64,000 nucleotides of DNA, taken from assembly GCA_008632985.1 (NCBI GenBank), contig QPGO01000010.1:124001-188000 (forward strand), given 5' to 3'. Under the pieces are notes generated by a model, which searched no databases, was not told where the DNA came from, and saw only the letters and a list, made by a program, of their open reading frames with translations. The position numbers and the translations under genes are program-made. This document shows, in pieces, positions 1-42,646 of the stretch. Numbering within the stretch: position 1 is the first letter of the stretch; each line of letters starts with the position of its first letter. The DNA is from Psammoneis japonica (Eukaryota).

Positions 1-394
1 ACACGCTCCAACTGCCTGGACCAGTGCCAGCAGCTGTGCAGGTTTCCACTGCCACCAGTGCCAGCAGCAAAAATGCTCTGACCATCACAGGTGCCAGCAG
101 CAGATGAAAAAGCTCCAAATGCCTTGATTGCTGGCAGTGCACACGGCCCAATGCCTTGGCCAGTGCCAGCAGCTGCACAGGTTCTCACCACCACCAGCAG
201 CTCAAAACAACAGATGAGCAGTTGCAATTTCTGACACACTGACAAAAATGGGAAAACAGTGTGCCTTGCTTGTCAATCAAGCACTCTCCAAGGCCAGCTG
301 TCAACCAAAATGGGGGAATCTGCATGCCTTGGCTGTTGGGAACAGCGTGGGCACATCTGCGCCATTTCGTGAGAGCTGTGGGGACATCATTGCC

Positions 395-678
395 TTCAGT
401 CTTTCTGGATCTGGACATGAAACTGGAGAAGACAGATGCACCATCAGCAAGGGCATCAAAAACCAATGAACCTCTTTTTGCACATGCCTTGTTTGAAGTG
501 TGTCATTTGTGGCAAGCATCATTTCAAGTGTGAGCTGTGGGAACAAGCACTGCCTGCAGTCTTTCTGGTGGGATCTGGGCACAAAAATTGGAGAAGACAG
601 GTGAATTGTCAGCGCACATTAAAAACCAATGAACCTCTTTTTGTGCATGCCTTGTTTGAAGAGTGTCACTTGTGGCAA
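395..678 (+). repeat. Degenerate tandem direct repeat, period about 160 bp
   Basis: cagtctttctgg...ggagaagacag...aaaaaccaatgaacctctttttg..catgccttgtttgaag.gtgtca.ttgtggcaa occurs at about 395-515 and 553-678. Confidence 0.8.
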
Positions 679-1299
679 CTCACAATGATTCTGGGTGCAA
701 AACTCTGACACACGCAAATGTGCCAACACTGCAAAAAAGTTTTTGTGATGTGCGTGCACACAACAACATGCTGGCTTGGCATTCTGGATGATGATTCTTT
801 GATGTGGCAGATTTGTGACAGCACACTCATTGTCATGAAACTCAAGCAATGCCCCAATCAAAACCCATCTTGACCAACCAGAAGGACAGCAGGGGGGTCT
901 TGCCACATGTTGAGCTGCTGTCATGGCCAATGAGGCAAAGTCTTTCACCACCATGGCAGGTTGTTAATTTGCAGATTTGCAACCACACATGGAATCCATG
1001 TGAATCACAGCAGCGCATGCTTTGGCTTTTCAACATTTTGGGAGAGGGTGTGCTGTTGTGAAGTGTGCAGAAAATTGTGCATGTAAAAAATGCACTGAAA
1101 ATGCAGCAGACCGACAGGCCATGCAAATCTGGGAAGCATGAAGAAAAATTTAAAATGGAGGGTGGGTCACGTGCGTGCAAAAAGTGGGCTGCACACGTGC
1201 AAACACACGATGTGAGTTGAGGAGGACCAAAGTGGAAACCAAGTTGAATTTGATGACTGTCAAAAGGAAACCAAACCATGCATCACAAAACACAGATGT

Positions 1300-4200
1300 C
1301 CTCTGTTCTAATTGATGAAATCAAACATTGCACGTGCATTTGATTGAAGCTTGTGCAAGAAAAGCCAGTGAGACATCAGATGAAACACAAAAAAATCTGC
1401 AATTTGTTGAGCACTGTTGCCGGCAGTTTTCAAATTTTGCTTGTCAACAATTTTGCCAATGCACATTAAAAAAATTTACAAAGGAAAGTGGAAACCACTT
1501 TGTTGCAGCCTCTGATGTCAACACACCCATGAATGAGGGCAAAGCAGCAGAGTGCAGCATCACAGCAGACAGCTCACTGTGGTTGATGGCAGCAGCATGA
1601 GCCTGGTTCATGGCAGAAGGCAGATGTTGGAAAAAGGTCTTGCCCAACTCAGAGAGAGGAAGAAAGTGAGGGCAACAGTGCAAGGGGTAAAAAGTGAGCA
1701 CCAGTGTGTGGAGAAATTGCTCAGGAAGTGAAGCTTTTGCCAATGTCATGTCAGCTCCACAAATGGAACCTTCGCTGAATCCCATGCGTGCTTGTCTGTG
1801 GAATGAAAACAGGAGCAGCACCAAAGTTCAAACCCACATGATGGGTTCCCCATTGGTTTGCCCATTGGTGGGACTCAATGGCATCTTAGACTGCATTCCA
1901 AGGATGCACTCCTCATGAGAAAAGGCACCATTTGAGACAGGTGTGGCAAAATGGGCCAGAGTGGTCCCCACAACAAGCGGACCCAATTGGGGTTTAGAAC
2001 ATGCCCACGCAAGTCCTTCAACCCATGCACTCCTGCTTTTGTGTGGCAACTTTTGGTCCAGCCAAGGATGTCCTCTCCTTGCTGGCTTGAAGTCTTGGCC
2101 ATGACATTTGCTTCTCAGACATGAAGGAAAGGTGTGCTGTGACATTGACAAAAGAAGAGTCCTGTTGGACCTGCTGTGCTCTTCACAAATTTTCAGTTTT
2201 GTGCGTGCCTTCAGAAAATGATGCATGAGTGAACTGAATGAGGGAAGATGCCAAAAGCACTCATGAAAGAATGCAAGCTGAAAGGTGCCAAGAGTGCAAT
2301 CAACCATGACCCAAATCTTGTCAGCACTTTAAGTCTTGGTTGGTGCAGTCAGCCAATCAACTTTCTGCAGGGACCCATGCAAAGAGGTGATGACCAAGTC
2401 ATTGGCCTTTGCAGACATGTTGAAAACATCTCTCAATGTGTTGGGTTCGTTGGGTCTGTTGGTCATTTTGGGCCATTTGGGCAGCTGCCTGGTTGTGCTT
2501 GGGCAGCTTCCAAAGCCTGTTGCAATGGATCAGGACAATGACACAGCTGTGGTCAAACCGCAGGGATTGGACAGATGCAGCGTTGGCTTGCTCCATGTTG
2601 CGTGAGTCGTCAAACAAGGTTTGCTCAAGAAAATCAACCGGGGATTCAGAGGATGCAGCGTGGAGATTTTCTTCATCCACAAAGTGTGCTGATTTGCATG
2701 TGCCAGTGGTGCAGCAAGAGGATTGGTGTGGACCAGCAGGAACAGGGTTGTCCGGGGTTGGTGAACTCAAAATGGAAAAAAATCTTTGGTGTCTGGTGGA
2801 TCTGCATCAAGTTCATGAGGAGTGGCATGGAGTTGACATTGAGGAAGTCTTTGACAGTTCCTGTGTGCTCATCTGCAGGTGTCTTGTCACAGTTGGTGAG
2901 TCCGGGTGTGTCATTGGAGATGTTCCAGATGGGTGGGGCACCTGAGAATAGAGTGTGATTACACACAAGTGAAGATTCAAAGACATTGTGTGCAACAATC
3001 AGATTTTTTGTGCCAGTTTCATTGGGAACATGCACCAAACAGCCAGCTCAGTTGGGTTGACATGAACACCATGGGAGTTGTGTTGGAGCTGTTGTTTGGC
3101 AGTGGTGTTGGACAGCCAGTTTCTGGATTGAGGGGTTGTTGCCTGTTGAAAGCAGTGGGACAGCCAAATGTGCAGAAGTGGTCAATCCTTGCAAGCTTGT
3201 TGAAGGCATGCTGGAAGTGTGGTGCAGCAAGAGAGCCATCAGCCATGTGGATGCCCTTGGTCAGTGGCACATTCAGGATTGCCATGGCATGGATGAACAG
3301 AGGTGCATGAATTGTCTGTTGTTGTTTGCACACATGCATTTGCACACTCTGTGCATGTGCACATTTGTGCATGGATCACACGCAAGGAAGCACATGCCCA
3401 GATGGCAAGACAGTTTGTGCACCTCTGTGGACAAAGGCAGAAGTGGGCCAAGAGGCAGGCATTCACAAGCAGGCAGCAAATGTTGTCAGATGCAACATGC
3501 CACATTCATTCACAAACTCCATTCATTTCTTGGTGACAAAGAGAGGCGCGGGAATTTTGACCTTGTTTCCGTTGTGTGCACCAAAGGAAATGAACTTGTT
3601 AGAGAGGAAGCACTGTGCAGAATTGGCGCAGATGAAGTTGACATCTTTCACATGGCCAACAGCTTGCACTTTGGCTGTCCAGGACTTGAAAGCAACAATG
3701 ATTGCCAGTGGTGGGGCTCTCAAGGCCACGGGCACCACAGTGGTGTCCCTTGTGTGTGGCCATGAAAAGATGACATGGAAAAGACGTTCCAGGGGTGAGA
3801 GCAAGGGAGTCACCTGGGATTTGGATTTACACCCATGAACACACGTGAAAAAGCATGCTCCATTTCAGTTGGGTCACACTTGACACAATTTTGTTTCTGT
3901 GACATGGTGATGTGTGCACTGTGCAAGTGGTCGTCAGTCCCAGGGGCAACATGACAATCACGCCAAACTTTGCCAGCGGCTCCAGCCAAAAAAGAACTCC
4001 AAGAAGAGCGACAACCAAGTTGATGACCTGCAAGGTCAAAGTCAATGGTGGTGGTCTTTGGGTGGGATGAAGCTGGTCAGGTGGTTGAGTGTCATTCTCC
4101 ACTTGATCTGTTGCATTGGAAACTGGAAACAAGAGGTTGAGCCAGCGCATCATGGCAAGATTGCTGCTGGGAAGCTGAAGGTGTGACCATCACCGAAGTC

Positions 4201-6700
4201 AAGTTTGATGATGTTTGTTGTGACCATGACATGGAACAGTTCATTGTTGGTGAACACATGGACCAAGAACAAGTTGTGATTGAGGCCAGGGAGATGCAGT
4301 GCATTTGGTCAAGGACAAGGTTGATGGGTGGCCTTGGTCATCTTGAAATTGCAAGGTGTGGACATGGGTGCCATCTGCAATCACAATGGGGGCATGACAA
4401 CCAGCACTGTTGTCAAGAGAATCATGGTGGACAAAGTGAGAGGAGGTGCCAGAGTCAACAAACCAGCTGCAAATGTTGGAGAGGTCAGTGTCACATGGCA
4501 ACTGCTGGGGTTGGTGTGCAGATTGGGGTCATTGGCCATTCAGGCAACTTCTTGACCAGGGGAGTTGATGACTGGGTTGGAAAAGAGAACAGCAAGGGGA
4601 TGAAGTTCTCTTGAGGAAGTCAACACTGACCCCTGAGACAACTGACAAGTTGTCACAATCTGAAGTGGTTGGCAACAGTTCCTCCAAAGGTGTGGTTGTG
4701 CATGCATCATGCAAATCCAATGGTGGAGTTGGTGTCAACTTTTTGGGAAGAGCAAGGATTTTGCTTGGAGGACCACAAGAGGTGAGAGGGCACTGTGGCA
4801 AGTGTGGTCTTGTGGTGACAAAGAGAAGACAGAGCAGTGGATGAGTCCATGCTGGAGTCACAAGAACAGAGAATCAAAAGTGGCAGACCAGTCAAGGCCA
4901 AGTTGCAGGGCAAGTCATCGCTGAATGAGTCAGAACCAGAATCCATTCAGTGCACATGTGGACAGAGTGGTGGTGAGGATCCACAAGTTGAGACAGACAG
5001 GCAACAATCTTCCTCTGCATCAGTGCAGGTGGCACAAAAAATGATTTGGTCATCATGTGGTTGGGCCGTGTTGTGGCAAGTCCAAGTGGCTGCATTTTGT
5101 GCTGAGTGGCAGCAGGAGCAGTTTGTGTTGGAGTGGACTTGAGCCCAAGGCAACAAGAACAGAGGTGTCCTTTCTTCTTGCAATGGCAGCAAGTGACTTC
5201 ACTCAAGTCATGGGCAGGCTTGGCAGTGGATTGGATTTGGGGCTGGACTTGGGTGTTCCATTTTTCAATTCATGAAGATGGGAACAAAACAGTTGGTGGC
5301 ATTGTGGTTCCTCTTGCCACAGCAGCTGCAAATTTCAGAAGTGATGGTGTTGTGTGTTTGTTGTTGTTGCCATTGTTTGTTGCCTGGAGGGTTCCTTGCC
5401 ATTTCAATGTGGTTGTTGTTCATGCACAAGCCGGTGCCACCAGACAAATGGTTGCAGTGTTGGGCAACATGATGTTGCTCGTCAATGTTGTAGAATGTTT
5501 GCCACATGTCCTTGAAGAGGGGAGCAATGGCAGAAGGCAGGCAAGTGGCAGCTCAAAATTCAGATTTGAGTTGCTTGGCAGCAGCATCACATCACAGATG
5601 ACCACCCGTTTGGCTGAGAAAGTGGGTGCTTTCCTTGGCATTGGTTGTGAGAGGCAGGCCCACATTTTTTTGCAGTTCCAAAACTTGTGCTTGCATTGCT
5701 TGATGAAGTTGTCAGAAGATTTGTTGGAGTTGCGGAAGTCCTGGAGGTGGTCACAAGTGCAGCAGTTGTGTTCCTGGGAGAGAGAAGCACGGTGCTGCTG
5801 CAGCTCTTTGAGTGCAAGGTTGCCAGATTTTGGGCCAAGATTGGAGATGTCCAACTTGCAAGCACCATCCGTGCATGTCCACAGCAAAGCAAGAAGAGCC
5901 TTGTTAGTTTCTGCCAGAAGGGAGCAGAGAGGGTCAGAGGGGAAGCCTTCAAGACAGTTGTCGAGCTCAGGAAAAGAGGAAAAAGAGTTTGTGCAGCTCA
6001 TTCAGGAAGGTGTTGAAGCTCTGATGGCGGGTGCATGGGTTCTGATGGTGTTTCAGAACTCCAAGCTTTGGCCATGTGGAATGCAGGCTTCATGAGAGAA
6101 TTTGCCAAAGATTCTGAGGTGCACTCTGTTGCGCTGGCAGTGCAATGAAGAGGCTCAGAAAGGATGGCATCATTGTCAGAGGAAGAAGCATCACAAAAAG
6201 TTTTGTTGGCAGACAATTGAAGTGGGAGTTCCAGGGGGAGTGCCTCAGCCTGTTGCATCATGTTCTGGAAACAGTCAAGGGCAAGGAGTGCACTGGCTTG
6301 ACAAGCTAGATGGCAATGGAGAAGGGACTCAAAGGACAACTTGGCAGCATTGATCATGCAGTCAAGGTCATCCTTGCCTTTGAAAAATGGAGCAAGTGTC
6401 TGTTGAACATTGGAGAGCACATCGGTGGTGACAATGCAAACTTGTGAATTGAGTGCACTGTTGACTGTGATGTCAGCAATGGCAGGGGTTGACGTCTTCA
6501 GAGGAAGTGGCTGTGTGGTTGGTGGCAAAGATGTTTTCCTGGTCCATGCACTGTGGGGTTGCAAGAGCTTTGTCAAGAGCTCTGTCCATCTCATGGTGTG
6601 CAGAGTGCACGTGCCATGAGGTTCTCTGGACATGTTGCTGGAGTCCCATTGGCGGCATTGACATTAGAAAGAGCTGGTGTGGCAGCTTCACAAACAGTCA
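1300..6700 (-). mobile_element. Degenerate Ty1/Copia-type LTR retrotransposon (gag-PR-IN-RT order); ends approximate
   Basis: On the minus strand: two gag zinc knuckles (CSCCGKRNHNATNC near 5310; VTCCHCKKKGHLCSCC near 5180), aspartic protease WFVDSGTSSH near 4450, integrase-like segment ending in HFCTFGCP near 3170, and RT-like GVHGLKD (cf. LYGLK) near 2020. Many stops and frameshifts. No LTR pair recognised. Confidence 0.7.
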
Positions 6701-8217
6701 AGAGAGGTGGGAATTCTTCAGGAGATCCAAGTGGAGCTGTCCCATTGGCCTTGGATCCATGGGCAGCAGGAGGAGAATGAGCAGGAGAGGTCAGGGGAGA
6801 GCAAGGTGCCCCCCTTTTGGCTGAAGCACTCTCATTGTCAGAAGCAACAGTGTTGACAGCAACACAAATGGATTGAGATGTCAAATGATCACGGGCGGGG
6901 TGGGTGTCCAGATGAATTGCATGTCCTCTTGGGCTTGCTCTTGAAGCGACAATCAACATCTTGACACTGAAATGGTTTCCAACAAGACATGCCATGGCAA
7001 TGACAACAGGTTCATGGGGCTTTGCATTCCTGATTGGGCATCATCTTTTTGTGCTTCTTTGGGTTGAGATTGGGGCAACAATTGTCAGGTCATTCACCTG
7101 AAGTGTGAGCAGAGTTGGCATGGTTGGCTGGTGCAGAAGGTTTCTGGGTGCAATTGTGCAGAGTTTCCACATCTGTGTCAAGAAGAATGTCCAAAGATTT
7201 GTTGACATCCTGCAAGTGGTTGCAGATTGCACAATCACAATCAAGATGCTTGGGGTCAGAAAAGTCAAAATCTCTTTGGTCAGCTTCATCCAACAAGTGG
7301 CCAAGATGAGCACTTGAGTGCTGCAAGACATGAAGGTTGGAGTTGAGTTTGGATGTCTCCATCTGGAGACTGGCAACTTGGTGCTGAGCTTGAGCAACAC
7401 ACAGTTTGAGAGCAAAACGCACATTGTCCTTGAATTGTTGGCAACAGAGTTCCTCAGGAGACAGCAGAGCAGGGGCTGGGGCATGCTGAGTGGCCGCAAT
7501 TGAGCTGCGGATGGCACACAGGCTTGGCGTGCCAAAGACCATGGACAGAGGAGCAAATGTCATGCTCAAAATCAGTGTCATCCTTGAAGGCATCAAAAGC
7601 ACAACAACAAGCACATTGCAAGCAATGAGCAGAGACCTTGTTGTGTCCAGGAGCAGGCTGGGATGGCTTGGCAGATGGCTTGGAAAGCAGTGCAGACGTG
7701 TGCTTGATGCATCGGATCGGGGTGCAGTGTGGTGCTCCCTGGGTCACGCATCAGCTGCATCAACAAGAACTTGTGGAGTGCAACACAAGTTGTGATGCTG
7801 GGCCTTGGGGACATTGTCAACAGTGCCTCCATGTGGACCACAAAAGACGCAATTTGGGTGTGCATGTGACAACACACCTTGCACAAGAAGAAGCAGCGTG
7901 AGATGCATGATGAGCATTTGACGCAAAAGAAGCACTCTCCTCAGACCAAACCAGAAGCATTGCAGCCATGACAGAAATTGAGAAAGAACTGGGCCTCGCC
8001 TGAAAGTGACTTGGGGTGATCAAGTCCGTGCACGAACAGGAGAGAGTGAGCTAAAAAGAGTGACAGCTTGCACCACCAAAGCATGATCCAGACATTGTGA
8101 CAGACTCTGCGCTAGTCTCAGAATCGAAGCCAAGATGGAAATCGAAGGATGATTCCAACATGCCAACTAAACGCTGCGGAATTGCGGATGATTTCCATCA
8201 CAAACTGACCAGAAGAC

Positions 8218-9966
8218 ATGGTCTTCAGTCATGACGTTCAAATTTCAAAAGGGAATTTGGAATCCCTGACATCAAGAAGCAACAAAAAAGGCCACCCAAC
8301 CGACCACCAATCTGAGCCTGTGACCCAAACGCAACGCAAAGATGATGATTCTCTCTTCCACATCTGCGAAATCAGAAAGACGCACAGAAAAAATGAAGAT
8401 CAAAGAGTTGCTCAAAAAACCATGAGAGTCCGAAGACCAGCAGCACGTGACAGGATGAAAGAGGTGGTGAGATGTTGGTTTCTTGTCTCGCTGCCCCTCT
8501 TGGGTGTCATGTGCGCCGTCGCGTGGTTGAGCTTTCAGCAGAATGGACCGATCGGGCCTGCGTCAATGAGCTACACTGGAACTAATGAATGCGAAAACAC
8601 TTGCGACTGGAGTAAATCCAATGTCCCAGAACTTCACCGAAAGCTCTTGCCGGCCCAGCCATTCAGTGTGCCACCAACCATTTTGCCAGTGCTGTCCATG
8701 CTCCGTGGCATTAGTCCCAAAAACAGACACAACCATCGTGCGCTGATGGCCATGCTGCTCTTTTCTGTTGGCATCCCAATGCATTTCACCGCACACTTCC
8801 AGCTTCTCGAACCCCAAAATGTGTCGACATGGTGTGGAGCATGGGGCTCAATGATTTTTGTCACTCAAGTGAGCATGCATCATCTGATCTTTGTTCGCAG
8901 CCTTCCTCACTCGGAAAATTCCAATGAGTCGCTCCTCATCTTGCCATTTGGCCTTGGTTTTGCCATTCACTTGTTGGGACACTTGCATTTCGGCGGCGGG
9001 GCCTTTGTGTTTGTGTGGACCCAATCCGTGGCGTTGCACATTATCTTGATGTACCCTTGGCTTCGCCTGGTGGACCGTTGGCTTGAGAAGCCACACTCAA
9101 GAGGCACGCTAATTAATGCAGTTTTGGGGTTCGCTTGGGATGCATTTTACCTTCCATTTTGCAGCAGACGCGAGTCTTTCTTTCTGCCAGGAGGCTTCCA
9201 AGTGCCACTCCATGCAATTGGTGATTGCTTTCACTCCGCAGCTTGGATCATGAGCTGTGCTCCGCTTGTGAATGACATTCTTACAAAAATTTCACACAAA
9301 CATGAGCACTGCACAGAGCAGAAGAAGAAGCAATTGCAGCAGTTGTTGGACTCACAGTTTGGGGAAATTTTGAACAGAACTAGTGTAAATGCACCCTCCA
9401 GCCATTTGGATGGATTCTTTCAAACCATGTGGGTGTCGCCACCAGTGGTTGTTCCCCGTGTAAATCTGGGAACACCTCCCACAGTGCAGGGGTGGTTCTC
9501 TCAGGTGCATGTGACAGAAGCCATCAGCGAGATCTATCTTCATGAGATGCTCCGGCCATGTGATCAAGAAATTTCAGTGGAAATCTTTTTGGCCGACTGG
9601 TCCACCTCCAGATGCAGCACGCAACTTTCTGCCTTCGCCCCTCACAAAACTCTGGGACACTGCTCTTCCCCTGCTGGGACTTTGAAGAAACAGCAAGAAG
9701 TCTTGAAAGCCAAGAGTGACCGGAAAGCATTGGTCATGCACTCTGCCGGTGTTCCACTCGATCGCACTGAATCATGGAGACATTGCCATGCGTGCCATTT
9801 ACCTTCCATGACCTTCGTCCCAGCCAACTCTCACTTTGCCTCCAAAGTGTTGTTGCAGATCCAGCAACGCGCCATGCGAGTGATTTTCGCTAAATGTGGG
9901 TGCAATCGGAATGACAAGCGCCTCATTCTGTACGGCCCTCAATCTCTCAGTGGGGGCGGATTTTGA
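8218..9966 (+). pseudogene. Multi-pass membrane protein of unknown function, mutated copy; lost stop codons make it read through into TE sequence
   Basis: Several hydrophobic helices. Aligns with 15231-16352 with many Y->H/C changes. TAG TAG of copy 2 is CAG CAG here (9337-9342). Confidence 0.65.
9400..9575 (-). mobile_element. RT fragment resembling DIRS/Ngaro-type retrotransposons
   Basis: HLMKIDLADGFCH (K-x-D-L-x-D-G-F-Y motif), followed in another frame by FPDLHGEQPLVATP. Confidence 0.55.
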
Positions 9967-12400
9967 TCCTTGGACGTTGAACAGGGCATGATTGCGCAAC
10001 TGCAACAGTTCCTTCGGCACTCTTGTGGGTTCAACACATGCTGTCAGAAGATCAACCACATGCCGCAGCTCACATTGCCATTGCTTGGCATCAGCTGCAG
10101 CTGGGTGTGGGAATCAGCTTCCTAAAAGATGTCAGCACCAGACATCCACACAGTGAGTCCCACTGGCTTGCATCTGTCCACTTGTTCCTGCATCGTGTGG
10201 GTGGATGCATTGCTGTGTCCCAGGACGGGGTGTCACCTCTGCAATGTGACAATGATCAGCTCCCAATGGACATTGCCTTGGAGTTGTTGGAATTTTTGTC
10301 CCAAGAAATTTGGTGGATCAACCATTGTTGATTGCACCTTCAAGTGCTGCTCACGGTCTCAGACATTGCCTTGGCGGATGGCTGCAACCTGGATGAGTCC
10401 AAAGTCTGTGGTGACGACCCCACTTTCTCCTTGGCAGCATCAGCACCTTGTTTGACAATGTTGAACAGACCAAACCTTGTCTCAAGGCATGGGGTCCCTG
10501 AGTGTGCCTGTGTGAAATGTTGTGTGATGATGGATCCACCAGACTGCAAGCTCTTTTGGGAGATTGGCCAGTGCCTCCTTCCAACAAGATGCAGATTCAA
10601 GCCTCTGCCTGTTGGTCTCCAGAAGAATCACATTTTTGTGTGAGATCTCCATCTGGTTTTAATGTGTTTCTGGCCAAAGACACAGTCGCAACATCATCAC
10701 ATCAAATTGAAACAGTTCCTTCTCCAGCTGACTCATCTTTCCCAGCAGAAATCAACTCACTCAATGAAGGACGGTGGCAATGCATCCCTCACAGATCGCA
10801 GCTGACAGTTGACACACATCCTCTGCCACCCAAGCTCTTCAAAGACCGGCTGCAAGGCCTGCCTTCTTGGGAGTCAGCCCTCTTCTCAGAGATGGAATTC
10901 CACATGTCCCTCTGCAAATTAGCGGATTGCTTTGTTTCAAATTGCCTGATGTCAGGAAGTGACGGGTCTGTGATCCTCCAGAATGACGACCTTTGGCAGA
11001 CTGTGCAGGACTGGCATTTGGCAGAACACCTTCCTCTTGCCAAGCTGAAGCATGTGGCTTTCTCTCCTTGACACGATTTGTTTTCTGCCTGCAGGAGTTT
11101 TGCAAATTGTCCTCATGCAAGGGAGCTGACAACTGGTGCAACAACAAGGCTCTCATTCGAGTTCTGTCCCGTCTCACAGACAGCCGTCCCTCCATTGATC
11201 CCTCCCCTTGTGTCCATCCCGAACTTGATTTTCACCTTTGGAAGCATGTTGCCAATGTCTTGTCATCAGATTGGGGCATTGTGAACAAAATTTGTCAGAC
11301 CTTCACCACTGTCAAAGCCGTTCTTAATCAGTCTTCCCCCAGTCAGGTTCCCACACTTGCTTGAGTGGGTAAAAGGACATCAAGATTGACATCATCCGGT
11401 GGAAACTCCATCTCACAATGTGCAAATCAACATGCGGACTGACAAGCTGGCAGGCTGCTTTCATGGTCAACGTGAGTTTGACATGACAACGGTGTCCCCC
11501 CACTGCCAGTCTTGCCTCCACCTTCAAGATGGGCCCATTGGGGAAAGAAATGAATGGAACGAATCTGTCACTGACAAGATGGATTGGAAGGTGCATGCAA
11601 TGCTGGTTCATTGATGCTCCACATGTGTCCACTGTCAAATTGATCCATGAACTGCCACCTGCAGCCAAACAAGATTGCTCATCGATGCGATCCAGTCAGA
11701 CCGCATCATTGCCTGTCTTGCAAACATTCCATGGAAGATTGCAATCACATCCTGCAGTGTCCAGCCAATGAACCTTCTTGGCAATGCAAACTCTTGCAGG
11801 GTCTGCAAAAACACTGCAATGATGTTGATGCAATGCCTCCTCTTTGGGATCTGTTCTTGTCCTCTGTTGAAGCATGGTTTGAAGGTGAGATGACATGTGA
11901 TGATGACATTCACCCCTTGTTGCAACCTCCATGGAGAGCCCAGTCAGACATTGGATGGTGACAACTGTTCAATGGCCGTTGTTCCACCCTCTAGAACACT
12001 TTTCAAGAAATGCACCTCTGCAACATGGGACTGTTGGAAAAGTGTAGAAAGGAGAGCCGCCCACCTCCAGTCTGGGCTGTGCAGACAGGAACCTGCATTT
12101 GGAAATCTTGGTGGGAGTTGTGGGAGGAGCACAATCAAGAGGTCCACAGTCATGACGTGGACACTGGGAAGTCATCTCTGTGACAACAAGTGGAGGCCAA
12201 GCTCACGGCAATGTGCAACAAAAGACAGGATCATTTGGCTAAAGATGGGGACATGCTGATGGATTCAGTTGAAGAGCACCAATCTCACTCCACTTTGCAG
12301 ATGATTGGCTGGATCGCAATGGCAAAACCACAACTGAAAGACAGCCTCAAGAAAGCAAAGTGCTCCATGCGGCACTTGCTCTGCAGCCAGTTGTTTTGGC
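9600..12400 (+). mobile_element. 5'-truncated, degenerate non-LTR (LINE-like) retrotransposon with RT C-terminus, RNase H and CCHC finger
   Basis: HKTLG...G (RT thumb), LYGPQSLSGGGF..EQG, RNase H motifs SDGS, SSCQAEACG (cf. SSYRAE), CNN, EWVKGHQD (near 11364) and QINMRTDKLA, then CLSCKHSMEDCNHILQC zinc finger. Confidence 0.75.
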
Positions 12401-12539
12401 GGGTTGGTGTCACCTTCAGATGATGCCCATTCTGGCTGATTTGCACAAGCTTCTGCCGCACCGCAAGGTGCACTTGACGTGTGGGTCAGCTGGTGCCGGC
12501 CTGGCTGGCAAAGGAGTGATGGCGCTCAAAAGATTGACC

Positions 12540-12897
12540 TGGTTTTTTTAATCTTCATGAGACACACCTTGAAAGTTTGCCCAAGTGGCATTGATTTGAC
12601 TGAAGCAGTGGGCTGTGTGGCTGAATTTTCACCCCATAAAATGTTCAGTCCATCCACTGTGGGCCTTGGTTGGTGACCGTGCTGTGACACAACACCAATG
12701 GAGCCAAGTCACAGTCCTGGTGTGTCTTGTGCAAGCACTTTTTTTGCATGGTGGCACAGCTGTCCAGAACCCTTTTTCAACCACATCTGCCATGTCTTTG
12801 TGCAAGAACTTGATGCACTTGCAAGTGGATTCATGTGTTCCCCTGGTGACACTGGCATCCAGCTCAGCACGTGTCCACAGTGCATCAGTGATGGTGT
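12540..12897 (-). mobile_element. DIRS-like RT N-terminal fragment, cut at the duplication junction
   Basis: LWTRAELDASVTRGTHEST..KFLHKDMADVVEKGFW resembles the region upstream of DIRS-type RTs (W....RG.H.S / FL..EM......GFW). Confidence 0.5.
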
Positions 12898-15230
12898 GCA
12901 AAGCAAGAAGAGCCTTGTTAGTTTCTGCCAGAAGGGAGCAGAGAGGGTCAGAGGGGAAGCCTTCAAGACAGTTGTCGAGCTCAGGAAAAGAGGAAAAAGA
13001 GTTTGTGCAGCTCATTCAGGAAGGTGTTGAAGCTCTGATGGCGGGTGCATGGGTTCTGATGGTGTTTCAGAACTCCAAGCTTTGGCCATGTGGAGTGCAG
13101 GCTTCATGAGAGAATTTGCCAAAGATTCTGAGGTGCACTCTGTTGTGCTGGCAGTGCAATGAAGAGGCTCAGAAAGGATGGCATCATTGTCAGAGGAAGA
13201 AGCATCACAAAAAGTTTTGTTGGCGGACAATTGAAGTGGGAGTTCCAGGGGGAGTGCCTCAGCCTGTTGCATCATGTTCTGGAAACAGTCAAGGGCAAGG
13301 AGTGCACTGGCTTGACAAGCTAGATGGCAATGGAGAAGGGACTCAAAGGACAACTTGGCAGCATTGATCATGCAGTCAAGGTCATCCTTGCCTTTGAAAA
13401 ATGGAGCAAGTGTCTGTTGAACATTGGAGAGCGCATCGGTGGCGACAATGCAAACTTGTGAATTGAGTGCACTGTTGACTGTGATGTCAGCAATGGCAGG
13501 GGTTGACATCTTCAGAGGAAGTGGCTGTGTGGTTGGTGGCAAAGATGTTTTCCTGGTCCATGCACTGTGGGGTTGCAAGAGCTTTGTCAAGAGCTCTGTC
13601 CATCTCATGGTGTGCAGAGTGCGCGTGCCATGAGGTTCTCTGGACATGTTGCTGGAGTCCCATTGGCGGCATTGACATTAGAAAGAGCTGGTGTGGCAGC
13701 TTCACAAACAGTCAAGAGAGGTGGGAATTCTTCAGGAGATCCAAGTGGAGCTGTCCCATTGGCCTTGGATCCATGGGCAGCAGGAGGAGAATGAGCAGGA
13801 GAGGTCAGGGGAGAGCAAGGTGCCCCCCTTTGGCTGAAGCACTCTCATTGTCAGAAGCAACAGTGTTGACAGCAACACAAATGGATTGAGATGTCAAATG
13901 ATCATGGGCGGGGTGGGTGTCCAGATGAATTGCATGTCCTCTTGGGCTTGCTCTTGAAGCGACAATCAACATCTTGACACTGAAATGGTTTCCAACAAGA
14001 CATGCCATGGCAATGACAACAGGTTCATGGGGCTTTGCATTCCTGATTGGGCATCATCTTTTTGTGCTTCTTTGGGTTGAGATTGGGGCAACAATTGTCA
14101 GGTCATTCACCTGAAGTGTGAGCAGAGTTGGCATGGTTGGCTGGTGCAGAAGGTTTCTGGGTGCAATTGTGCAGAGTGTCCACATCTGTGTCAAGAAGAA
14201 TGTCCAAAGATTTGTTGACATCCTGCAAGTGGTTGCAGATTGCACAATCACAATCAAGATGCTTGGGGTCAGAAAAGTCAAAATCTCTTTGGTCAGCTTC
14301 ATCCAACAAGTGGCCAAGATGAGCACTTGAGTGCTGCAAGACACGAAGGTTGGAGTTGAGTTTGGATGTCTCCATCTGGAGACTGGCAACTTGGTGCTGA
14401 GCTTGAGCAACACACAGTTTGAGAGCAAAACGCACATTGTCCTTGAATTGTTGGCAACAGAGTTCCTCAGGAGACAGCAGAGCAGGGGCTGGGGCATGCT
14501 GAGTGGCCGCAACTAAGCTGCGGATGGCACACAGGCTTGGCGTGCCAAAGACCATGGACAGAGGAGCAAATGCCGTGCTCAAAATCAATGTCATCCTTGA
14601 AGGCATCAAAAGCACAACAACAAGCACATTGCAAGCAATGAGCAGAGACCTTGTTGTGTCCAGGAGCAGGCTGGGATGGCTTGGCAGATGGCTTGGAAAG
14701 CAGTGCAGACGTGTGCTTGATGCATCGGATCGGGGTGCAGTGTGGTGCTCCCTGGGTCACGCATCAGCTGCATCAACAAGAACTTGTGGAGTGCAACACA
14801 AGTTGTGATGCTGGGCCTTGGGGACATTGTCAACAGTGCCTCCGTGTGGACCACAAAAGACGCAATTTGGGTGTGCATGTGACAACACACCTTGCGCAAG
14901 AAGAAGCAGCGTGAGATGCATGATGAGCATTTGACGCAAAAGAAGCACTCTCCTCAGACCAAACCAGAAGCATTGCAGCCATGACAGAAATTGAGAAAGA
15001 ACTGGGCCTCGCCTGAAAGTGACTTGGGGTGATCAAGTCCGTGCACGAACAGGAGCGAGTGAGCCAAAAAGAGTGACAGCTTGCACCACCAAAGCATGTT
15101 CCAGACATTGTGATAGACTCTGCGCTAGTCTCAGAATCGAAGCCAAGATGGAAATCGAAGGATGATTCCGACATGTTAACTAAACGCTGCGGAATTGCGG
15201 ATGATTTCCATCACAAACTGACCAGAAGAC

Positions 15231-16352
15231 ATGGTCTTCAGTCATGACGTTCAAATTTCAAAAGGGAATTTGGAATCCCTAACATCAAGAAGCAATAAAA
15301 AAGGCCACCCAACCGACCACCAATCTGAGCCTGTGACCCAAACGCAACGCGAAGATGATGATTCTCTCTTCCACATCTGCGAAATCAGAAAGACGCACAG
15401 AAAAAATGAAGATCAAAGAGTTACTCAAAAAACCATGAGAGTCCGAAGACCAGTAGTACGTGACAGGATGAAAGAGGTGGTGAGATGTTGGTTTCTTGTC
15501 TCGCTACCCCTCTTGGGTGTCACACACGCCGTCGCGTGGTTGAGCTTTCAGCAGAATGGACCGATCGGGCCTACGTCAATGAGCTACACTGGAACTAATG
15601 AATGCGAAAACACTTACGACTGGAGTAAATCCAATGTCCCAGAACTTTACCGAAAGCTCTTGCCGGCCCAGCCATTCAGTGTGCCACCAACCATTTTGCC
15701 AGTGCTGTCCACACTCCGTGGCATTAGTCCCGAAAACAGATACAACCATCGTGCGCTGATGGCCATGCTGCTCTTTTCTGTTGGCGTCCCAATGCATTTC
15801 ACCGCACACTTCCAGCTTCTCGAACCCCAAAATGTGTCGACATGGTATGGAGCATGGGGCTTAATGATTTTTGTCACTCAAGTGAGCATGTATTATCTGA
15901 TCTTTGTTCGCAGCCTTCCTCACTCGGAAAATTCCAATGAGTCGCTCCTCATCTTGCCATTTGGCCTTGGTTTTGCCATTTACTTGTTGGGACACTTGCA
16001 TTTCGGCGGCGGGGCCTTTGTGTTTGTGTGGACCCAATCCGTGGCGTTGCACATTATCTTGATGTACCCTTGGCTTCGCCTGGTGGACCGTTGGCTTGAG
16101 AAGCCATGCTCAAGAGGCATGCTAATTAATGCAGTTTTGGGGTTCGCTTGGGATGCATTTTACCTTCCATTTTGCTGTAGACGCGAGTCTTTCTTTCTAC
16201 CAGGAGGCTTCCAAGTGCCACTCCATGCAATTGGTGATTGCTTTCACTCCGCAGCTTGGATCATGAGCTGTGCTCCGCTTGTGAATGACATTCTTACAAA
16301 AATTTCACACAAACATGAGCACTGCACAGAGGAGAAGAAGAAGCAATTATAG
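15231..16352 (+). pseudogene. Multi-pass membrane protein of unknown function, less mutated copy (373 aa ORF; true start may be a later ATG)
   Basis: Hydrophobic helices, retains several Tyr codons and the stop TAG at 16350-16352. Carries its own TA->CA/TG changes. Confidence 0.6.
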
Positions 16353-16612
16353 TAGTTGTTAGACTCACAGTTTAGGGAAATTTTGAACAGAACTAGCACA
16401 AATGCACCCTCCAGCCATTTGGATGGATTCTTTCAAACCATGTGGGTGTCGCCACCAGTGGTTGTTCCCCGTGTAAATCTGGGAACACCTCCCACAGTGC
16501 AGGGGTGGTTCTCTCAGGTGTATGTGACAGAAGCCATCAGCGAGATCTATCTTCATGAGATGCTCCGGCCACACAATCAAGAAATTTCAGTGGAAATCTT
16601 TTTGGCCGACCG

Positions 16613-19414
16613 GTCTGCCTCCAGATGCAGCACGCAACTTTCTGCCTTCGCCCCTCACAAAACTCTGGGACACTGCTCTTCCCCTGCTGGGACTTTGAAG
16701 AAACAGCAAGAAGTCTTGAAAGCCAAGAGTGACCGGAAAGCATTGGTCATGCACTCTACCGGCATTCCACTCGATCGCACTGAATCATGGAGACATTGCC
16801 ATGCGTGCTATTTACCTTCCATGACCTTCATCCCAGCTAACTCTCACTTTGCCTCCAAAGTGTTGTTGCAGATCCAGCAACGCGCCATGCGAGTGATTTT
16901 CGCTAAATGTGGATGCAATCGGAATGACAAGCGCCTCATTCTGTACGGCTTTCAATCTCTCAGTGGGGGCGGATTTTGATCCTTGGACGTTGAACAGGGC
17001 ATGATTGCGCAACTGCAACAGTTCCTTCGGCACTCTCGTGGGCTCAACACATGCTGTCAGAAGATCAACCACATGCCGCAGTTCACATTGCCATTGCTTG
17101 GCATCAGCTGCAGCTGGGTGTGGGAATCAGCTTCCTAAAAGATGTCAGCACCAGACATCCACACAGTGAGTCCCACTGGCTTGCATCTGTCCACTTGTTC
17201 CTGCATCGTGTGGGTGGATGCATTGCTGTGTCCCAGGACGGGCTGTCACCTCTGCAACGTGACAATGATCAGTTCCCAATGGACATTGCCTTGGAGTTGT
17301 TGGAATTTTTGTCCCAAGAAATTTGGTGGATCAACCATTGTTGATTGCACCTTCAAGTGCTGCTCACGGTCTCAGACATTGCCTTGGCGGACGGCTGCAA
17401 CCTGGATGAGTCCAAAGTCTGTGGTGACGACCCCACTTTCTCCTTGGCAGCATCAGCACCTTGTTTGACAATGTTGAACAGACCAAACCTTGTCTCAAGG
17501 CATGGAGTCCCTGAGTGTGCCTGTGTGAAATGTTGTGTGATGATGGATCCACCAGACTGCAAGCTCTTTTGGGAGATTGGCCAGTGCCTCCTTCCAACAA
17601 GATGCAGATTCAAGCCTCTGCCTGTTGGTCTCCAGAAGAATCACATTTGTGTGTGAGATCTCCATCTGGTTTTAATGTGTTTCTGGCCAAAGACACAGTC
17701 GCAACATCATCACATCAAATTGAAACAGTTCCTTCTTCAGCTGACTCATCTTTCCCGGCAGAAATCAACTCACTCAATGAAGGACGGTGGCAATGCATCC
17801 CTCACAGATCGCAGCTGACAGTTGACACACATCCTCTGCCACCCAAGCTCTTCAAAGACCGGCTGCAAGGCCTGCCTTCTTGGGAGTCAGCCCTCTTCTC
17901 AGAGATGGAATTCCACATGTCCCTCTGCAAATTAGCGGATTGCTTTGTTTCAAATTGCCTGATGTCAGGAAGTGACGGGTCTGTGATCCTCCAGAATGAT
18001 GACCTTTGGCAGACTGTGCAGGACTGGCATTTGGCAGAACACCTTCCTCTTGCCAAGCTGAAGCATGTGGCTTTCTCTCCTTGACACGATTTGTTTTCTG
18101 CCTGCAGGAGTTTTGCAAATTGTCCTCATGCAAGGGAGCTGACAACTGGTGCAACAACAAGGCTCTCATTCGAGTTCTGTCCCATCTCACAGACAGCCGT
18201 CCCTCCATTGATCCCTCCCCTTGTGTCCATGCCGAACTTGATTTTCACCTTTGGAAGCATGTTGCCAATGTCTTGTCATCAGATTGGGGCATTGTGAACA
18301 AAATTTGTCAGACCTTCACCACTGTCAAAGCTGTTCTTAATCAGTCTTCCCCCAGTCAGGTTCCCACACTTGCTTGAGTGGGTAAAAGGACATCAAGATT
18401 GACATCATCTGGTGGAAACTCCATCTCACAATGTGCAAATCAACATGCGGACTGACAAGCTGGCAGGCTGCTTTCATGGTCAATGTGAGTTTGACATGAC
18501 AACGGTGTCCCCCCACTGCCAGTCTTGCCTCCACCTTCAAGATGGGCCCATTGGGGAAAGAAATGAATGGAATGAATCTGTCACTGACAAGATGGATTGG
18601 AAGGTGCATGCAATGCTGGTTCGTTGATGCTCCACATGTGTCCACTGTCAAATTGATCCATGAACTGCCACCTGCAGCCAAACAAGATTGCTCATCGATG
18701 CGATCCAGTCAGACCGCATCATTGCCTGTCTTGCAAACATTCCATGGAAGATTGCAATCACATCCTGCGGTGTCCAGCCAATGAACCTTCTTGGCAATGC
18801 AAATTCTTGCAGGGTCTGCAAAAACACTGCAATGATGTTGATGCAATGCCTCCTCTTTGGGATCTGTTCTTGTCCTCTGTTGAAGCATGGTTTTGAAGGT
18901 GAGATGACATGTGATGATGACATTCACCCCTTGTTGCAACCTCCATGGAGAGCCCAGTCAGACATTGGATGGTGACAACTGTTCAATGGCCGTTGTTCCA
19001 CCCTCTAGAACACTTTTCAAGAAATGCACCTCTGCAACATGGGACTGTTGGAAAAGTGTAGAAAGGAGAGCCGCCCACCTCCAGTCTGGGCTGTGCAGAC
19101 AGGAACCTGCATTTGGAAATCTTGGTGGGAGTTGTGGGAGGAGCACAATCAAGAGGTCCACAGTCATGACGTGGACACTGGGAAGTCATCTCTGTGACAA
19201 CAAGTGGAGGCCAAGCTCGCGGCAATGTGCAACAAAAGACAGGATCATTTGGCTAAAGATGGGGACATGCTGATGGATTCAGTTGAAGAGCACCAATCTC
19301 ACTCCACTTTGCAGATGATTGGCTGGATCGCAATGGCAAAACCACAACTGAAAGACAGCCTCAAGAAAGCAAAGTGCTCCATGCGGCACTTGCTCTGCAG
19401 CCAGTTGTTTTGGC
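16613..19414 (+). mobile_element. Second copy of the degenerate LINE-like element
   Basis: Same motifs as 9600-12400 at offset 7013-7014. Confidence 0.75.
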
Positions 19415-19554
19415 GGGTTGGTGTCACCTTCGGATGACGCCCATTCTGGCTGATTTGCACAAGCTTCTGCCACACCGCAAGGTGCACTTGACGTGTGGGT
19501 CAGCTGGTGCTGGCCTGGCTGGCAAAGGAGTGATGGCGCTCAAAAGATTGACCT

Positions 19555-20100
19555 GGTTTTTTTAATCTTCATGAGACACACCTTGAAAGTTTGCCCAAGT
19601 GGCATTGATTTGACTGAAGCAGTGGGCTGTGTGGCTGAATTTTCACCCCATAAAATGTTCAGTCCATCCACTGTGGGCCTTGGTTGGTGACCGTGCTGTG
19701 ACACAACACCAATGGAGCCAAGTCACAGTCCTGGTGTGTCTTGTGCAAGCACTTTTTTTGCACGGTGGCACAGCTGTCCAGAACCCTTTTTCAACCACAT
19801 CTGCCATGTCTTTGTGCAAGAACTTGATGCACTTGCAAGTGGATTCATGTGTTCCCCTGGTGACACTGGCATCCAGCTCAGCACATGTCCACAGTGCATC
19901 AGTGATGGTGTGATGGGAGCACGCACCTCGGTGCTTGCAGCTGCTCAACAACTGGTGTGCCAGATGTTTCTGCATGTGAGACAACCACCTCCAATCTCAT
20001 TCTCTGCTGCTGTGATGTTCGAACAAGTGGCTCAGTCCTCCATCACACAATGATTCAGTGTCAATTGCTGGTGCATGCTCCTCACCCAATTCATCACAGC
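19555..20100 (-). mobile_element. DIRS-like RT upstream region, longer remnant
   Basis: KHLAHQLLSSCKHRGA...LWTCAELDASVTRGTHEST...FLHKDMADVVEKGFW. Confidence 0.5.
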
Positions 20101-21627
20101 AAACTGTGGTGGCAGCTCCCACATCCTGCCCAGGTGCACCTGGAGTGGCAGGTGTGACAGCATTTTGCTGTTGCAAAAACAGGCTCTCTTGGCCCCAGTT
20201 TCCTGCACTGTCTGGGCCAGTGTCAAAGACCTGCTTCATTTTCCAGTTTTCTTCACCCCCCAAACACCAAGTGAAGAACCTGATTTGTTCAGCCTTGGAG
20301 TGGTCATTGTGGTGATCATCACTTGTGCTGCAGTTGGTGCTGAGATGTTTCTTTGTGTGACACAGGTTGCAATGAAGTGACCTTTGGTCTAAAGCTTGTG
20401 GTTGAAGCTCTGTCTTTTCAATCACGTGATCGCAGGTGTCTGGAAAGGAGGAGACTTCCGTTCCCCCTTGATCAGGGGCCAGTTTGCCATGCTTCTTGCC
20501 TTTCCAGGAGCAATTTCATTACAGTGATTTGGAAGCCATTTGCAGCACTGATGGCAAGTGCACACAACATGGACATCCCATTGTTCCATCAGTGGCATCA
20601 AGTTGCCCCACAACTGTGACTGAGCGTCCTTTTTTCATTGTGAAACAAACCAATCCATTGTTGGACATAAATGCATTGTGATTTTTCTTGCGATGCTTTT
20701 GAGGTTCACTGCCAAATTGTCTCCACACCTTTGAGCAATGTTTCTCTTTGATTTGTTCACCAGCACAGCAAGACAGGCAAATGCCATCTTGAACAATGCA
20801 GCAGTTGTCTTTTTGTAACTTGCTCTCGTGATTGGTGGCAAACAATCTCATGGCAGCAGTGCTCGTGTCCGGTGGACCAACTTGCAGTGCCATTGAAGGT
20901 GCTTTGCCACTTACAAAGACGTTTACAAAGCGCCCCTGGACGTCTCTGGGCGTTGACTGGTTGCTAAGAAAACACTGAGAAGGGATCTGACGGCATGATC
21001 GCTTGATTTCGTTCCACAAAAAAAATTTTTTTTCGTGCGGCGACTAACCAATAAAGATGAGAAAGATCAGAGAACGTGATGGTTCTCGTAGAAGGATGGT
21101 GGCAGGCCAACGCAAGAGAGCTCAAATTCACCATAGAAACTGCTTCTGACTACGCGTTGATCTAAGGATGATTTATGAGAGGCAATATAGCATCACCGTA
21201 CAGCCTCTTCCGAGTCGCTTGAACCGCCATGACGTTTCATTCTTCCTTGTGGCCCTCTTGCAGTTTGCCTTAGCGCTGGTGTTGGGTTTCTGATACCTCG
21301 CTGACGAGTCCCAAAAATGATTACTCTGGGGAGCATAAGAAGGAGAGCTACGGCATGCGTTGACTTGAAACGAAAACCACCAGACTCTCTGTGTAACTTG
21401 CTACGCAGACAGGCTTCCGCTACGACTAGCATCTTACCGCATCGCGTTGATCAAAACATCACACCGCTGTCCTTTACGGAGATAGATCGGGGAAGTCCAT
21501 ATACATGTTATGCATCAGGTGGATTTACCCCCTGCAGCATGGCAGGTCACGGCAGTCATTGATGAGATCCTGGACCTGCCGAACAATTGGGCATAACGAG
21601 CGAGACCTTTTTCTCGCGCTTGCGGTG

Positions 21628-26533: not shown

Positions 26534-26585
26534 ACGAAACTACTATGAGTACGACTGTCCGGTAGAGAGCTTCGGTCGTTATTGA

Positions 26586-29917: not shown

Positions 29918-29974
29918 CTCAATCGCGGCCCAGTCTCTGCTCTCAGAGCTCTTGTTCCTGTGAACTCCGGACCG

Positions 29975-40200: not shown

Positions 40201-40214
40201 AATCTCCCACGTAA

Positions 40215-40983
40215 CCGGCAAGGGTGCTGCAATGATCGGCTCTGCCAAGCTGCACCATGGTGAGTCACAGTCCCCAGCTGGGGGTGAGGAAAAGAAGGGA
40301 GGTTGCTCCTGTGGTGGGAGCAGGCTTTTTTGACCTTCTTTGACCAGAGACCTCTCTCTCCTGTGAGCACAGGTCTGTGGCACAGCTTGCTGGTCAGCCA
40401 ACATGCTGGTCAGCCAACATGCCATTTTGTTTAATGCTCCAACTGCTCTCGCAACTGCGATCTCCTCATGCTTGTTGATGTTCCTTCTTGTTTTGTGCGC
40501 TGGCTCATGCAAAACACAGCACTGCCAGTGCGAGCAACAACGACTCTCTTGGCACTGCTTTTGTTGCTGTTGTGGCTCTGCTGGGGCACAGTCAGTTGCG
40601 AGCCTTGGCTCATCACATTTGTTGGCATGACACTGCACAAATGAAGCAATGGCTGTTGTCAAACCCAAAAAATGTTTGTCTCCATCAAAAGTTCAGGGTT
40701 GAAATGTGAGGTTGTCAACACAAGCTGATTTGTGGGCTCATTGCTGACACCTGCTGTCCACAGCAAGCTTCGCCATTCCCACTTGCAGCCCCTCTCCATT
40801 GCTTGTGATGGTGCATGAGAATGCACTGGACTTGACCACGATTGTGTGCATCATGCAATCTTGGCAACAACCCTCTTCTTTTGTGCACTGTGCACAGCCT
40901 TCTTGTTGTCTTCAGTGCCCCCAAATTTGACCTGCCAGGCTGCAAACAGGGAGGCCACCATTTGCTCTCATTCATTTGGTGTG

Positions 40984-41016
<33 letters not shown>

Positions 41017-42300: not shown

Positions 42301-42646
42301 TCCAAAAATGAGGCACTTACGTCAGTCAATGGTTATGACCAAATGGCCGTGGCACCTGTTGATCCAATTTCCATCAACACCAACCGCGTCAAACAACACG
42401 TGCCTGCTTTTCAAACCTGCTTTGGGATCGCGTGAGTGAGTCGTGCAGGCGGCACGACTCGATTGTCCTGCAACAGCATAGCAAACATTCCAAAAATAAG
42501 CTGGACACTAGACACTATTACCTATTACACCTCTCGCAGGCAAAGAGCAGAGAGGTACGTAGGAGGTTGTCAGTTTCCGTTGAGTTCCTGTGCCTAAGAA
42601 TTCCACTTCAGCAAAAACCAGCACCCTATCATTCTTCTTCAAGACG

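Follow-up and report, generated by a model that had tools for sequence, protein, structure and literature searches.

A graded flanking-base footprint of TpA loss in discrete blocks of a diatom-like nuclear genome

Introduction

Hypermutation of DNA from A:T to G:C as a natural process has hardly been described, and the only report that we found is a preprint on Bigelowiella natans (Mettrop et al. 2026, bioRxiv 10.64898/2026.01.13.699255), the main text of which gives no flanking context. It is the closest described relative of the pattern analysed here, a loss of TpA steps in discrete blocks of a 64,000-nucleotide stretch of Psammoneis japonica (GenBank assembly GCA_008632985.1, contig QPGO01000010.1, positions 124,001 to 188,000 of the forward strand), which as a whole is referred to as the window. 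According to that preprint, two integrated viral regions that are silent accumulate mutations about 1000-fold faster in mutation-accumulation lines of B. natans, almost only as A:T→G:C and only at TpA, with 231 de novo TpA events; the genome also holds clusters that are poor in TpA and rich in CpA and TpG, and an ADAT2 homologue is proposed as the enzyme. The words ‘context’, ‘flanking’, ‘trinucleotide’, ‘CpG’ and ‘diatom’ each occur zero times in its main text. The window is part of a eukaryotic, diatom-like nuclear genome; its D123 protein is matched best (51% identity) by one from the centric diatom Stephanocyclus meneghinianus, its unmutated parts carry long open reading frames (ORFs) for sulfotransferases, an HMA-domain protein and a D123/ATP-grasp protein, and the public sequencing run X1 contains 83% of the sampled window words.

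In tRNA, TadA and ADAT2-ADAT3 target A34, which follows U33, and TadA additionally reads C35 and G36. The substrate of ADAR is RNA; its edits fall on a single strand in retro-copies, and a G 3′ of the target is favoured. The amphioxus enzyme BjADAT2 is reported to deaminate both A and C in DNA, with a preference for GAA and TCG (PMC10354150). Fungal repeat-induced point mutation (RIP) is described as a C→T change, mainly at CpA, which makes TpA and lowers GC (PMC7296669). In dinoflagellates, 5-hydroxymethyluracil (5hmU) is reported to replace T preferentially in TA and TC, to lie on repeats together with 5-methylcytosine (5mC) and to silence transposons (PMC11572971).

No report of TpA hypermutation in diatoms was found in the literature searched. 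The window looks like a second lineage of this process, at saturation and with a defined footprint of flanking bases, which we describe here from the surviving sites, the products and the differences between two tandem copies.

Results

A dinucleotide scan of the window reveals a two-state landscape with sharp borders, and a two-state hidden Markov model (HMM) over pyrimidine–purine (YpR) steps calls seven blocks that together comprise 27,937 bp, about 44% of the window (Table 1). The observed/expected (o/e) ratio of TA is 0.04 in the blocks compared with 0.59 in the adjoining DNA, so that the loss is confined to discrete regions; the block ratios of CG and CA/TG are 0.19 and 1.83, and positions 1-2340, at the start of block 1, give 0.07 for TA, 0.16 for CG, 1.99 for TG, 1.77 for CA and 0.84 for AT. 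Unmutated DNA has 40.4 TA, 56.7 CG and 140.0 CA/TG per kb and the blocks have 2.9, 11.0 and 225.9, respectively; the combined loss of TA and CG (83.2 per kb) is balanced by the gain of CA/TG (85.9 per kb). Base composition is barely shifted (GC 0.47-0.51 in the blocks, 0.45-0.49 outside). Because all changes are transitions, the process leaves a purine flank a purine and a pyrimidine flank a pyrimidine, and the three flank classes of YpR steps (for TpA: YTAR, mixed and RTAY) are represented by 24.2/53.1/22.7% in the blocks and 24.5/53.8/21.8% outside, which supports the inferred ancestral composition of the blocks. Since loss equals gain and both composition and flank classes are kept, the blocks are ordinary DNA in which palindromic YpR steps have been turned into non-palindromic ones by transitions. 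A:T→G:C transitions on TpA are evident both in this balance and in the tandem-copy differences described below. AA/TT is unchanged (157.8 vs 157.5 per kb), CpA and ApG/GpA are without any depletion of the TpA type, and among ApA, CpA, GpA and TpA only TpA is lost, placing a T 5′ of the edited A.

The initial annotation had listed 11 surviving TpA in positions 1-2340 and had proposed that YTAR sites resist while RTAY sites disappear. The list is accurate: exactly 11 are present, all within 601-2340, namely TTAA at 620, 965, 1151, 1467 and 2330, CTAA at 1309, TTAG at 1887 and 1995, and, in mixed contexts, GTAA at 1084 and 1688 and TTAC at 1477, with GTAC, ATAT, GTAT and ATAC accounting for 0 of the 11. 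Over all seven blocks the 80 survivors divide into 52 YTAR, 28 mixed and 0 RTAY, compared with 247, 665 and 389 of the 1301 TpA in unmutated regions (chi-square p = 9e-23). The pattern persists when the second tandem copy is removed (41/25/0 of 66, p = 1.6e-17) and in a held-out set that lacks both 1-2340 and that copy (33/22/0 of 55, p = 6.5e-14), and it is present in each block that has more than one survivor. Survival relative to the average is 7.7 for TTAA, 3.1 for CTAA/TTAG, 1.5 for GTAA/TTAC and for CTAG, 0.63 for CTAC/GTAG, 0.45 for ATAA/TTAT, 0.10 for ATAG/CTAT and 0 for ATAC/GTAT, ATAT and GTAC. TTAA thereby goes from the least frequent TA tetramer of normal DNA (42 of 1301) to the most frequent survivor (20 of 80). 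Survival of the NTAN tetramers is decisively non-uniform once composition is corrected for, in these classes and in the per-strand model alike. In normal DNA (20912-40217 and the other unmutated regions) the TA spectrum is the reverse, with 30% RTAY, 19% YTAR and TTAA rarest, and thus nothing suggests that the process acts at a low level on genes or the DNA flanking them. We also considered whether the survivors could be fresh TpA arising from TG or CA; the flanks of TG and CA in the blocks, at about 24/53/23%, cannot give the 65/35/0 that is seen.

The sixteen tetramers are described by a multiplicative model in which the strands act separately and the fate of each A is set by its 3′ neighbour (deviance 15.7 on 12 degrees of freedom, p = 0.21). 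Per-strand survival in this model is 0.70 with a 3′ A, 0.29 with G, 0.115 with C and 0.029 with T, a range of about 25-fold, so the preference for T-A-Y is graded rather than binary, with loss at +1 in the order T>C>G>A. Survival of a TpA requires a poor context on both strands, which yields the order TTAA > CTAA/TTAG > CTAG and the extinction of RTAY. Case-control regression extends the context further 3′, with likelihood ratios of 101.9 at +1, 39.2 at +2 and a weak 12.6 at +3, and an A at +2 is protective: TAAA and TAGA survive, and the 37 surviving TAG views include 26 TAGA and a single TAGG. The footprint thus consists of an obligatory 5′ T, the +1 order T>C>G>A and protection by A at +2, each strand being read separately. 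The target proposed in the initial annotation, TA(C/T) on the strand that carries the A, is backed by the survivors, by the polarised differences between duplicate copies and by the excess of YTGY/RCAR products.

This product excess concerns TpA whose strands differ, one offering a good and the other a poor context (YTAY/RTAR), for which the rule predicts YTGY or RCAR; the larger gain of that class (31.0 per kb for YTGY+RCAR, 16.3 per kb for YCAY+RTGR, Fisher p = 0.005) fits this prediction. TG is about equal to CA in every block, the autocorrelation of TG/CA labels is near 0 and the variance per 500 bp is 1.04 times binomial. The equality and lack of clustering indicate that both strands were hit independently, site by site. 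Strand processivity, to which two TGTG-vs-CACA swaps between the copies might have pointed, was set aside, given the label autocorrelation near 0 and the 14 runs counted by hand in copy A, where 14.4 are expected.

A head-to-tail duplication of a 7,014-bp unit makes the direction of change visible. The two copies (Table 1) differ at 109 sites, with 99 transitions, 8 transversions and 2 indels, and nearly all differences set TA or CG in one copy against TG or CA in the other. Taking TA as ancestral where the other copy shows TG or CA, 31 TpA losses can be polarised, and TA is found opposite any other YpR state at 0 sites. As a fraction of opportunities, A was changed in 6/13 cases before T, 13/30 before C, 5/37 before G and 7/44 before A, that is 19/43 (44%) before a pyrimidine vs 12/81 (15%) before a purine (odds ratio 4.6, p = 8e-4). 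An earlier reading of these differences as mostly TAY→TGY and RTA→RCA, with some exceptions, agrees with the 19 of 31 losses in which Y follows the A. Of the 1429 sites at which each copy has TG or CA, 1420 agree and 9 are TG vs CA, so most conversion preceded the duplication and a little occurred independently afterwards. Within the gene-like frame, copy A has lost about 30 TpA and copy B about 2; the process therefore hit copy A and spared copy B, whose segment serves as a near-ancestral reference. Together with the strand symmetry, such change in place after duplication argues for action on double-stranded DNA, and not for one-strand RNA editing followed by retro-copying.

The stretch 5884-19912 may be a genuine tandem duplication, or the assembly may have joined two haplotypes there. 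The gene-like frame that it contains in each copy (8218-9966 and 15231-16979, both on the + strand) spans about 580 codons and has no Pfam match. It is broken in copy B by TAG at 16353-16355, where copy A has CAG and a 582-aa ORF, and a search for relatives of 15231-16349 returned only diatom ‘hypothetical protein’ look-alikes with scores of 0.79-0.83, below the counting level. A self-comparison of the window, beyond the 7-kb duplication and short local repeats, matched no block to any other block. The high-copy repeat of block 1 contains a local 160-bp duplication (363-515 and 520-678, 81% identical), and the small duplicate 355-520/512-685 offers too few informative sites for polarising.

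CpG loss shares its block borders with TpA loss, but the latter is separable from it and faster. In the young 1.9-kb segment the polarised changes are mostly TpA (about 30) with only a handful of CpG, though CpG sites outnumber TpA there. CpG survival depends weakly on the 5′ base (TCG 0.67, ACG 1.08, CCG 1.16, GCG 1.25; likelihood ratio 25.6). Furthermore, the window and a contig of run X1 differ by 5 substitutions over 3312-5800, and 4 of these set CpG against CpA/TpG (3457, 3619, 3628 and 4009); CpG decay seems to be still segregating in a block in which TpA is already exhausted. Our interpretation is that two processes operate in the same silent chromatin, a fast, context-bound editing of TpA and a slower decay of CpG of the methylation type.

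The blocks are non-genic, partly repetitive DNA. A Pfam scan of 79 of their 93 ORFs (stop-to-stop, at least 110 aa; the other 14 belong to the second tandem copy) gave 0 matches above cut-off and one below it, to Excalibur, at 17.5 bits against a cut-off of 22. Only about 8% of bases are changed, which should be too few to mask reverse transcriptase or transposase domains, and the blocks are thus not recognisable long terminal repeat (LTR) elements or DNA transposons. They contain long ORFs on both strands (for example 5106-6095 and 3136-3765), which are spurious and result from the near disappearance of TAA and TAG, TGA being the only stop left. Genes and short flanks are spared, as the unmutated D123 island between two blocks shows. 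The word depth of one part of block 1 in run X1 makes it a dispersed repeat of some 30-45 copies, and the rest of 1-5800 has single-copy depth by exact 31-mers. Contigs of run X1 at a depth of about 64 are identical to the window over 1-482 and 1470-2479, and this exact match shows that the block sequence is real. Among the public runs matching 1-5800 no RNA run is listed, which gives no reading on expression. A metagenome scan with a D123 alignment returned 35 loci, none close (best 41% identity) and none with joint depletion of TA and CG, a result that has no bearing on other diatoms; the lowest 1-kb TA o/e among them, 0.12, belongs to a locus of 59% GC with a CG ratio of 1.14.

Table 1 Blocks, duplicated copies and other features of the window
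Feature	Coordinates	Strand	Basis and content
Block 1	2..8109 (8108 bp)		HMM; 20 TA, 76 CG, 980 TG, 901 CA; survivors 13 YTAR, 7 mixed, 0 RTAY
Block 2	9978..15112		HMM; 14 TA, 73 CG, 595 TG, 546 CA
Block 3	17039..20909		HMM; 14 TA, 52 CG, 460 TG, 416 CA
Block 4	40219..42315		HMM; 5 TA, 22 CG; ends 275 bp before the D123-family ORF
Block 5	44159..50327		HMM; 19 TA, 47 CG, 681 TG, 721 CA
Block 6	55805..58056		HMM; 7 TA, 30 CG
Block 7 (short)	58129..58433		HMM; 1 TA, 8 CG
Region of the initial annotation	601..2340		11 surviving TpA: 8 YTAR, 3 mixed, 0 RTAY; within block 1
High-copy repeat in block 1	389..1552		Run X1 word depth 1900-3100 vs about 64 in neighbouring sequence
Duplication, copy A	5884..12898	+	7,014-bp unit, 98.4% identical to copy B
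Duplication, copy B	12898..19912	+	Head-to-tail with copy A
Gene-like segment, copy A	8110..9976	+	Partly hypermutated mosaic of mutated and normal patches; most TpA of copy B lost
Gene-like segment, copy B	15114..17038 (1.9 kb)	+	Little mutated; 46 TA, 76 CG; near-ancestral reference
Unmutated 1.8-kb island with D123/ATP-grasp gene (ORF 42590-43759)	42318..44155	+	Flanked by blocks 4 and 5

Outside the blocks, two sulfotransferase-family ORFs are divergently placed in unmutated DNA, at 22712-23890 (-) and 25307-26533 (+), with Sulfotransfer_1/3 and Gal-3-O-sulfotransferase/Sulfotransfer_2 domains. Seven overlapping copies of a repeat with a 24-nt period, rich in Ser/Thr/Asp/Asn in one frame, occupy 52232-52450 within the ORF pair 51828-53066 (+) and 52223-52999 (-), the former of which has a weak, sub-threshold match to leishmanolysin. 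Close to the window end, a 450-bp unit stands in tandem at 62949-63872 (80-90% identity), also in unmutated DNA.

Discussion

The blocks share with the viral regions of B. natans transitions of TpA to TpG or CpA on both strands, confinement to regions, DNA that looks silent or foreign, and depletion of TpA with enrichment of CpA and TpG. In both cases the action is also uneven (some mutation-accumulation lines only there, copy A but not copy B here). The lineage differs, since B. natans is a chlorarachniophyte and the best protein match of the window is to a diatom. The extent differs as well, with a TA o/e of 0.04 over about 44% of the window vs the 0.45 given for the nucleocytoplasmic large DNA virus (NCLDV) region in the preprint, and unlike in its main text, the depletion here is coupled with that of CpG. 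Finally, the B. natans targets are integrated viral DNA, whereas 0 of the 79 block ORFs scanned with Pfam carry a viral or transposable-element domain and 389-1552 is high copy.

Fungal RIP displays a similar general character, with saturating transitions on both strands of sharply bounded, non-genic or repeated DNA that leave genes intact. However, TpA is destroyed here and GC is unchanged, and most of 1553-5800 has single-copy depth. RIP was rejected as an explanation, as its defining C→T at CpA, excess of TpA and lower GC are all missing. CpG decay of the vertebrate methylation type matches the CpG half of the pattern, namely an o/e of about 0.19, TpG/CpA products, little dependence on flanks and segregating CpG, yet it gives no loss of TpA. 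Symmetric N6-adenine methylation at ApT was likewise rejected; as the initial annotation had already remarked in arguing against it, ApT is not visibly depleted, and its o/e of 0.83 in the blocks and 0.90 outside stands beside 0.04 and 0.59 for TA. In common with TadA and ADAT2, the process shows a T/U 5′ of the target A. Those enzymes read flanking bases on the same strand, C35 and G36 in the case of TadA; a strong dependence on +1 and +2 is present here, with the order T>C>G>A at +1 and ‘not A’ at +2, which is not C then G. The comparison with TadA made in the initial annotation stays an analogy, and its further statement that DNA-editing derivatives of TadA favour TA is weakened, since evolved TadA editors are reported to accept a broad context (PMC10354150). 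The C preference of BjADAT2 for TCG, described in the same source, resembles the weak bias that makes TCG the most depleted CpG context here, while its A context, GAA, is unlike T-A-Y.

We propose enzymatic adenine deamination in silent chromatin as the most likely mechanism and, taking the statement as a whole, hold it with moderate confidence. A saturating mutation process confined to certain regions of the DNA would convert TpA to TpG or CpA, in that on each strand the A of T-A would become G with a chance set by the bases 3′ of it (T>C>G>A at +1, with A at +2, and weakly at +3, protecting). Chemically, an enzyme would deaminate adenine in DNA, leaving hypoxanthine. The candidate deaminase would need a 5′ T and read one to two bases 3′ of its target, in the manner of TadA or ADAT2, and may be directed to silenced chromatin. 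Loss of CpG would be a second, slower and almost context-free process, for which the deamination of 5mC in methylated silent DNA is probably the simplest cause. What the data show directly is the block structure, the balance of lost and gained steps, polarised changes made up of transitions only, a graded footprint and symmetry between the strands; deamination, the class of enzyme and its targeting to chromatin are what we infer.

Several points weigh against this proposal. The enzyme is a candidate by analogy with TadA and ADAT2. The order seen at +1, T>C>G>A, is not the 3′ G of ADAR. Nor does it fit the GAA reported for BjADAT2 (PMC10354150). In terms of sequence, an attack on the A and one on its paired T would be equivalent, R-T-A on the T strand being the same statement. 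The data comprise one 64-kb window with survivor counts of 66-80 and 31 polarised events, and the reference for the ancestral composition of the blocks is the adjoining unmutated DNA rather than ancestral copies. The Pfam scan put 0 of 79 block ORFs above cut-off. In addition, X1 is the only run that contains the stretch and is perhaps the source sample of the assembly itself.

The equivalence of ‘A then Y’ and ‘T after R’ leads directly to an alternative in which thymine is attacked, whereby a hydroxylase of the TET/JBP type marks the T of R-T-A in silenced DNA and the modified T is occasionally copied or repaired as C, giving CpA. 5hmU base-pairs chiefly with A, and no strong T→C mutagenic effect of it is known. 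Dinoflagellate 5hmU offers a precedent for a preference for TpA in DNA, being found in TA and TC, enriched on repeats, overlapping with 5mC and silencing transposons (PMC11572971), but that source treats it as a mark and reports no T→C change arising from it. TpC shows no loss here beyond the general difference in GA/TC between genes and blocks, 5hmU in diatoms is not reported in the literature searched, and the B. natans authors prefer adenine deamination in their preprint; we consider an attack on thymine unlikely. A single dual-function deaminase of the TadA/ADAT2 type, converting A to inosine at T-A and C to U at T-C-G, would unite both depletions in one system, and we regard it as rather improbable. 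The identical block borders of TpA and CpG loss, the low survival of TCG (0.67 vs 1.08-1.25) and the reported action of amphioxus ADAT2 on A as well as C in DNA, where it favours TCG when C is the target (PMC10354150), are consistent with such an enzyme. Against this, the CpG context effect, with its likelihood ratio of 25.6, is weak beside the roughly 25-fold per-strand range at TpA, loss of TpA is far ahead of that of CpG in the young segment, differences of CpG against TpG/CpA still segregate between run X1 and the window in sequence whose TpA is exhausted, and a strict need for CpG with an o/e of 0.19 is what methylation decay alone gives.

Survival data cannot split the rate of damage from that of repair, and glycosylases are context dependent, so the footprint might be produced by repair if hypoxanthine or another lesion arose free of context and were removed well in T-A-R-A and poorly in T-A-Y. 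This we hold to be quite improbable, given that the absolute need for a 5′ T must still come from the damaging step and that per-strand survival varies about 25-fold with the +1 base, a large span for a repair bias alone. Some platforms misread heavily modified DNA and the only run with the stretch may be the source sample, yet an artefact of assembly or base calling at modified bases is highly improbable when contigs at a depth of about 64 give the block sequence exactly over 1 kb and the tandem copies agree in TG vs CA at 1420 of 1429 sites; a native composition, which we place with it, is opposed by the exact mass balance and the transition-only polarised differences. ADAR-like editing of retroelement transcripts, followed by reverse transcription and insertion, has in its favour the A→G change with a 5′ U/T, a 5′ base that ADAR is stated to favour in the Discussion of the B. 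natans preprint. Such editing predicts A→G on one strand and a 3′ G, but TG equals CA in every block without strand runs, the 3′ preference is T>C>G>A with G a poor neighbour, the changes accumulated in place after the tandem duplication and the 79 block ORFs scanned with Pfam contain no reverse transcriptase or retroelement domain. We find it barely credible and have rejected it.

The footprint is a quantitative specification against which the 231 de novo events of B. natans can be set and with which candidate deaminases or thymine hydroxylases can be screened, and it discriminates against mechanisms of the ADAR and RIP types. For annotation, gene finders would over-call in the blocks. If adenine deamination is indeed the mechanism, an enzyme from nature that deaminates adenine in DNA within a defined context would be of interest for base editing. 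It is possible, though in our view on the doubtful side, that diatoms, and with Bigelowiella perhaps much of the stramenopile–alveolate–rhizarian (SAR) group, possess a genome defence based on a chromatin-directed DNA adenine deaminase with a T-A-Y-(not A) footprint, a mirror image of RIP that would operate alongside CpG deamination or carry it out through the same enzyme. Were this true, the footprint would let the enzyme be identified, which could prove to be a natural DNA adenine editor that acts in a double-strand context, and the defence would remove TAA and TAG stops and TATA-like signals from silent DNA.

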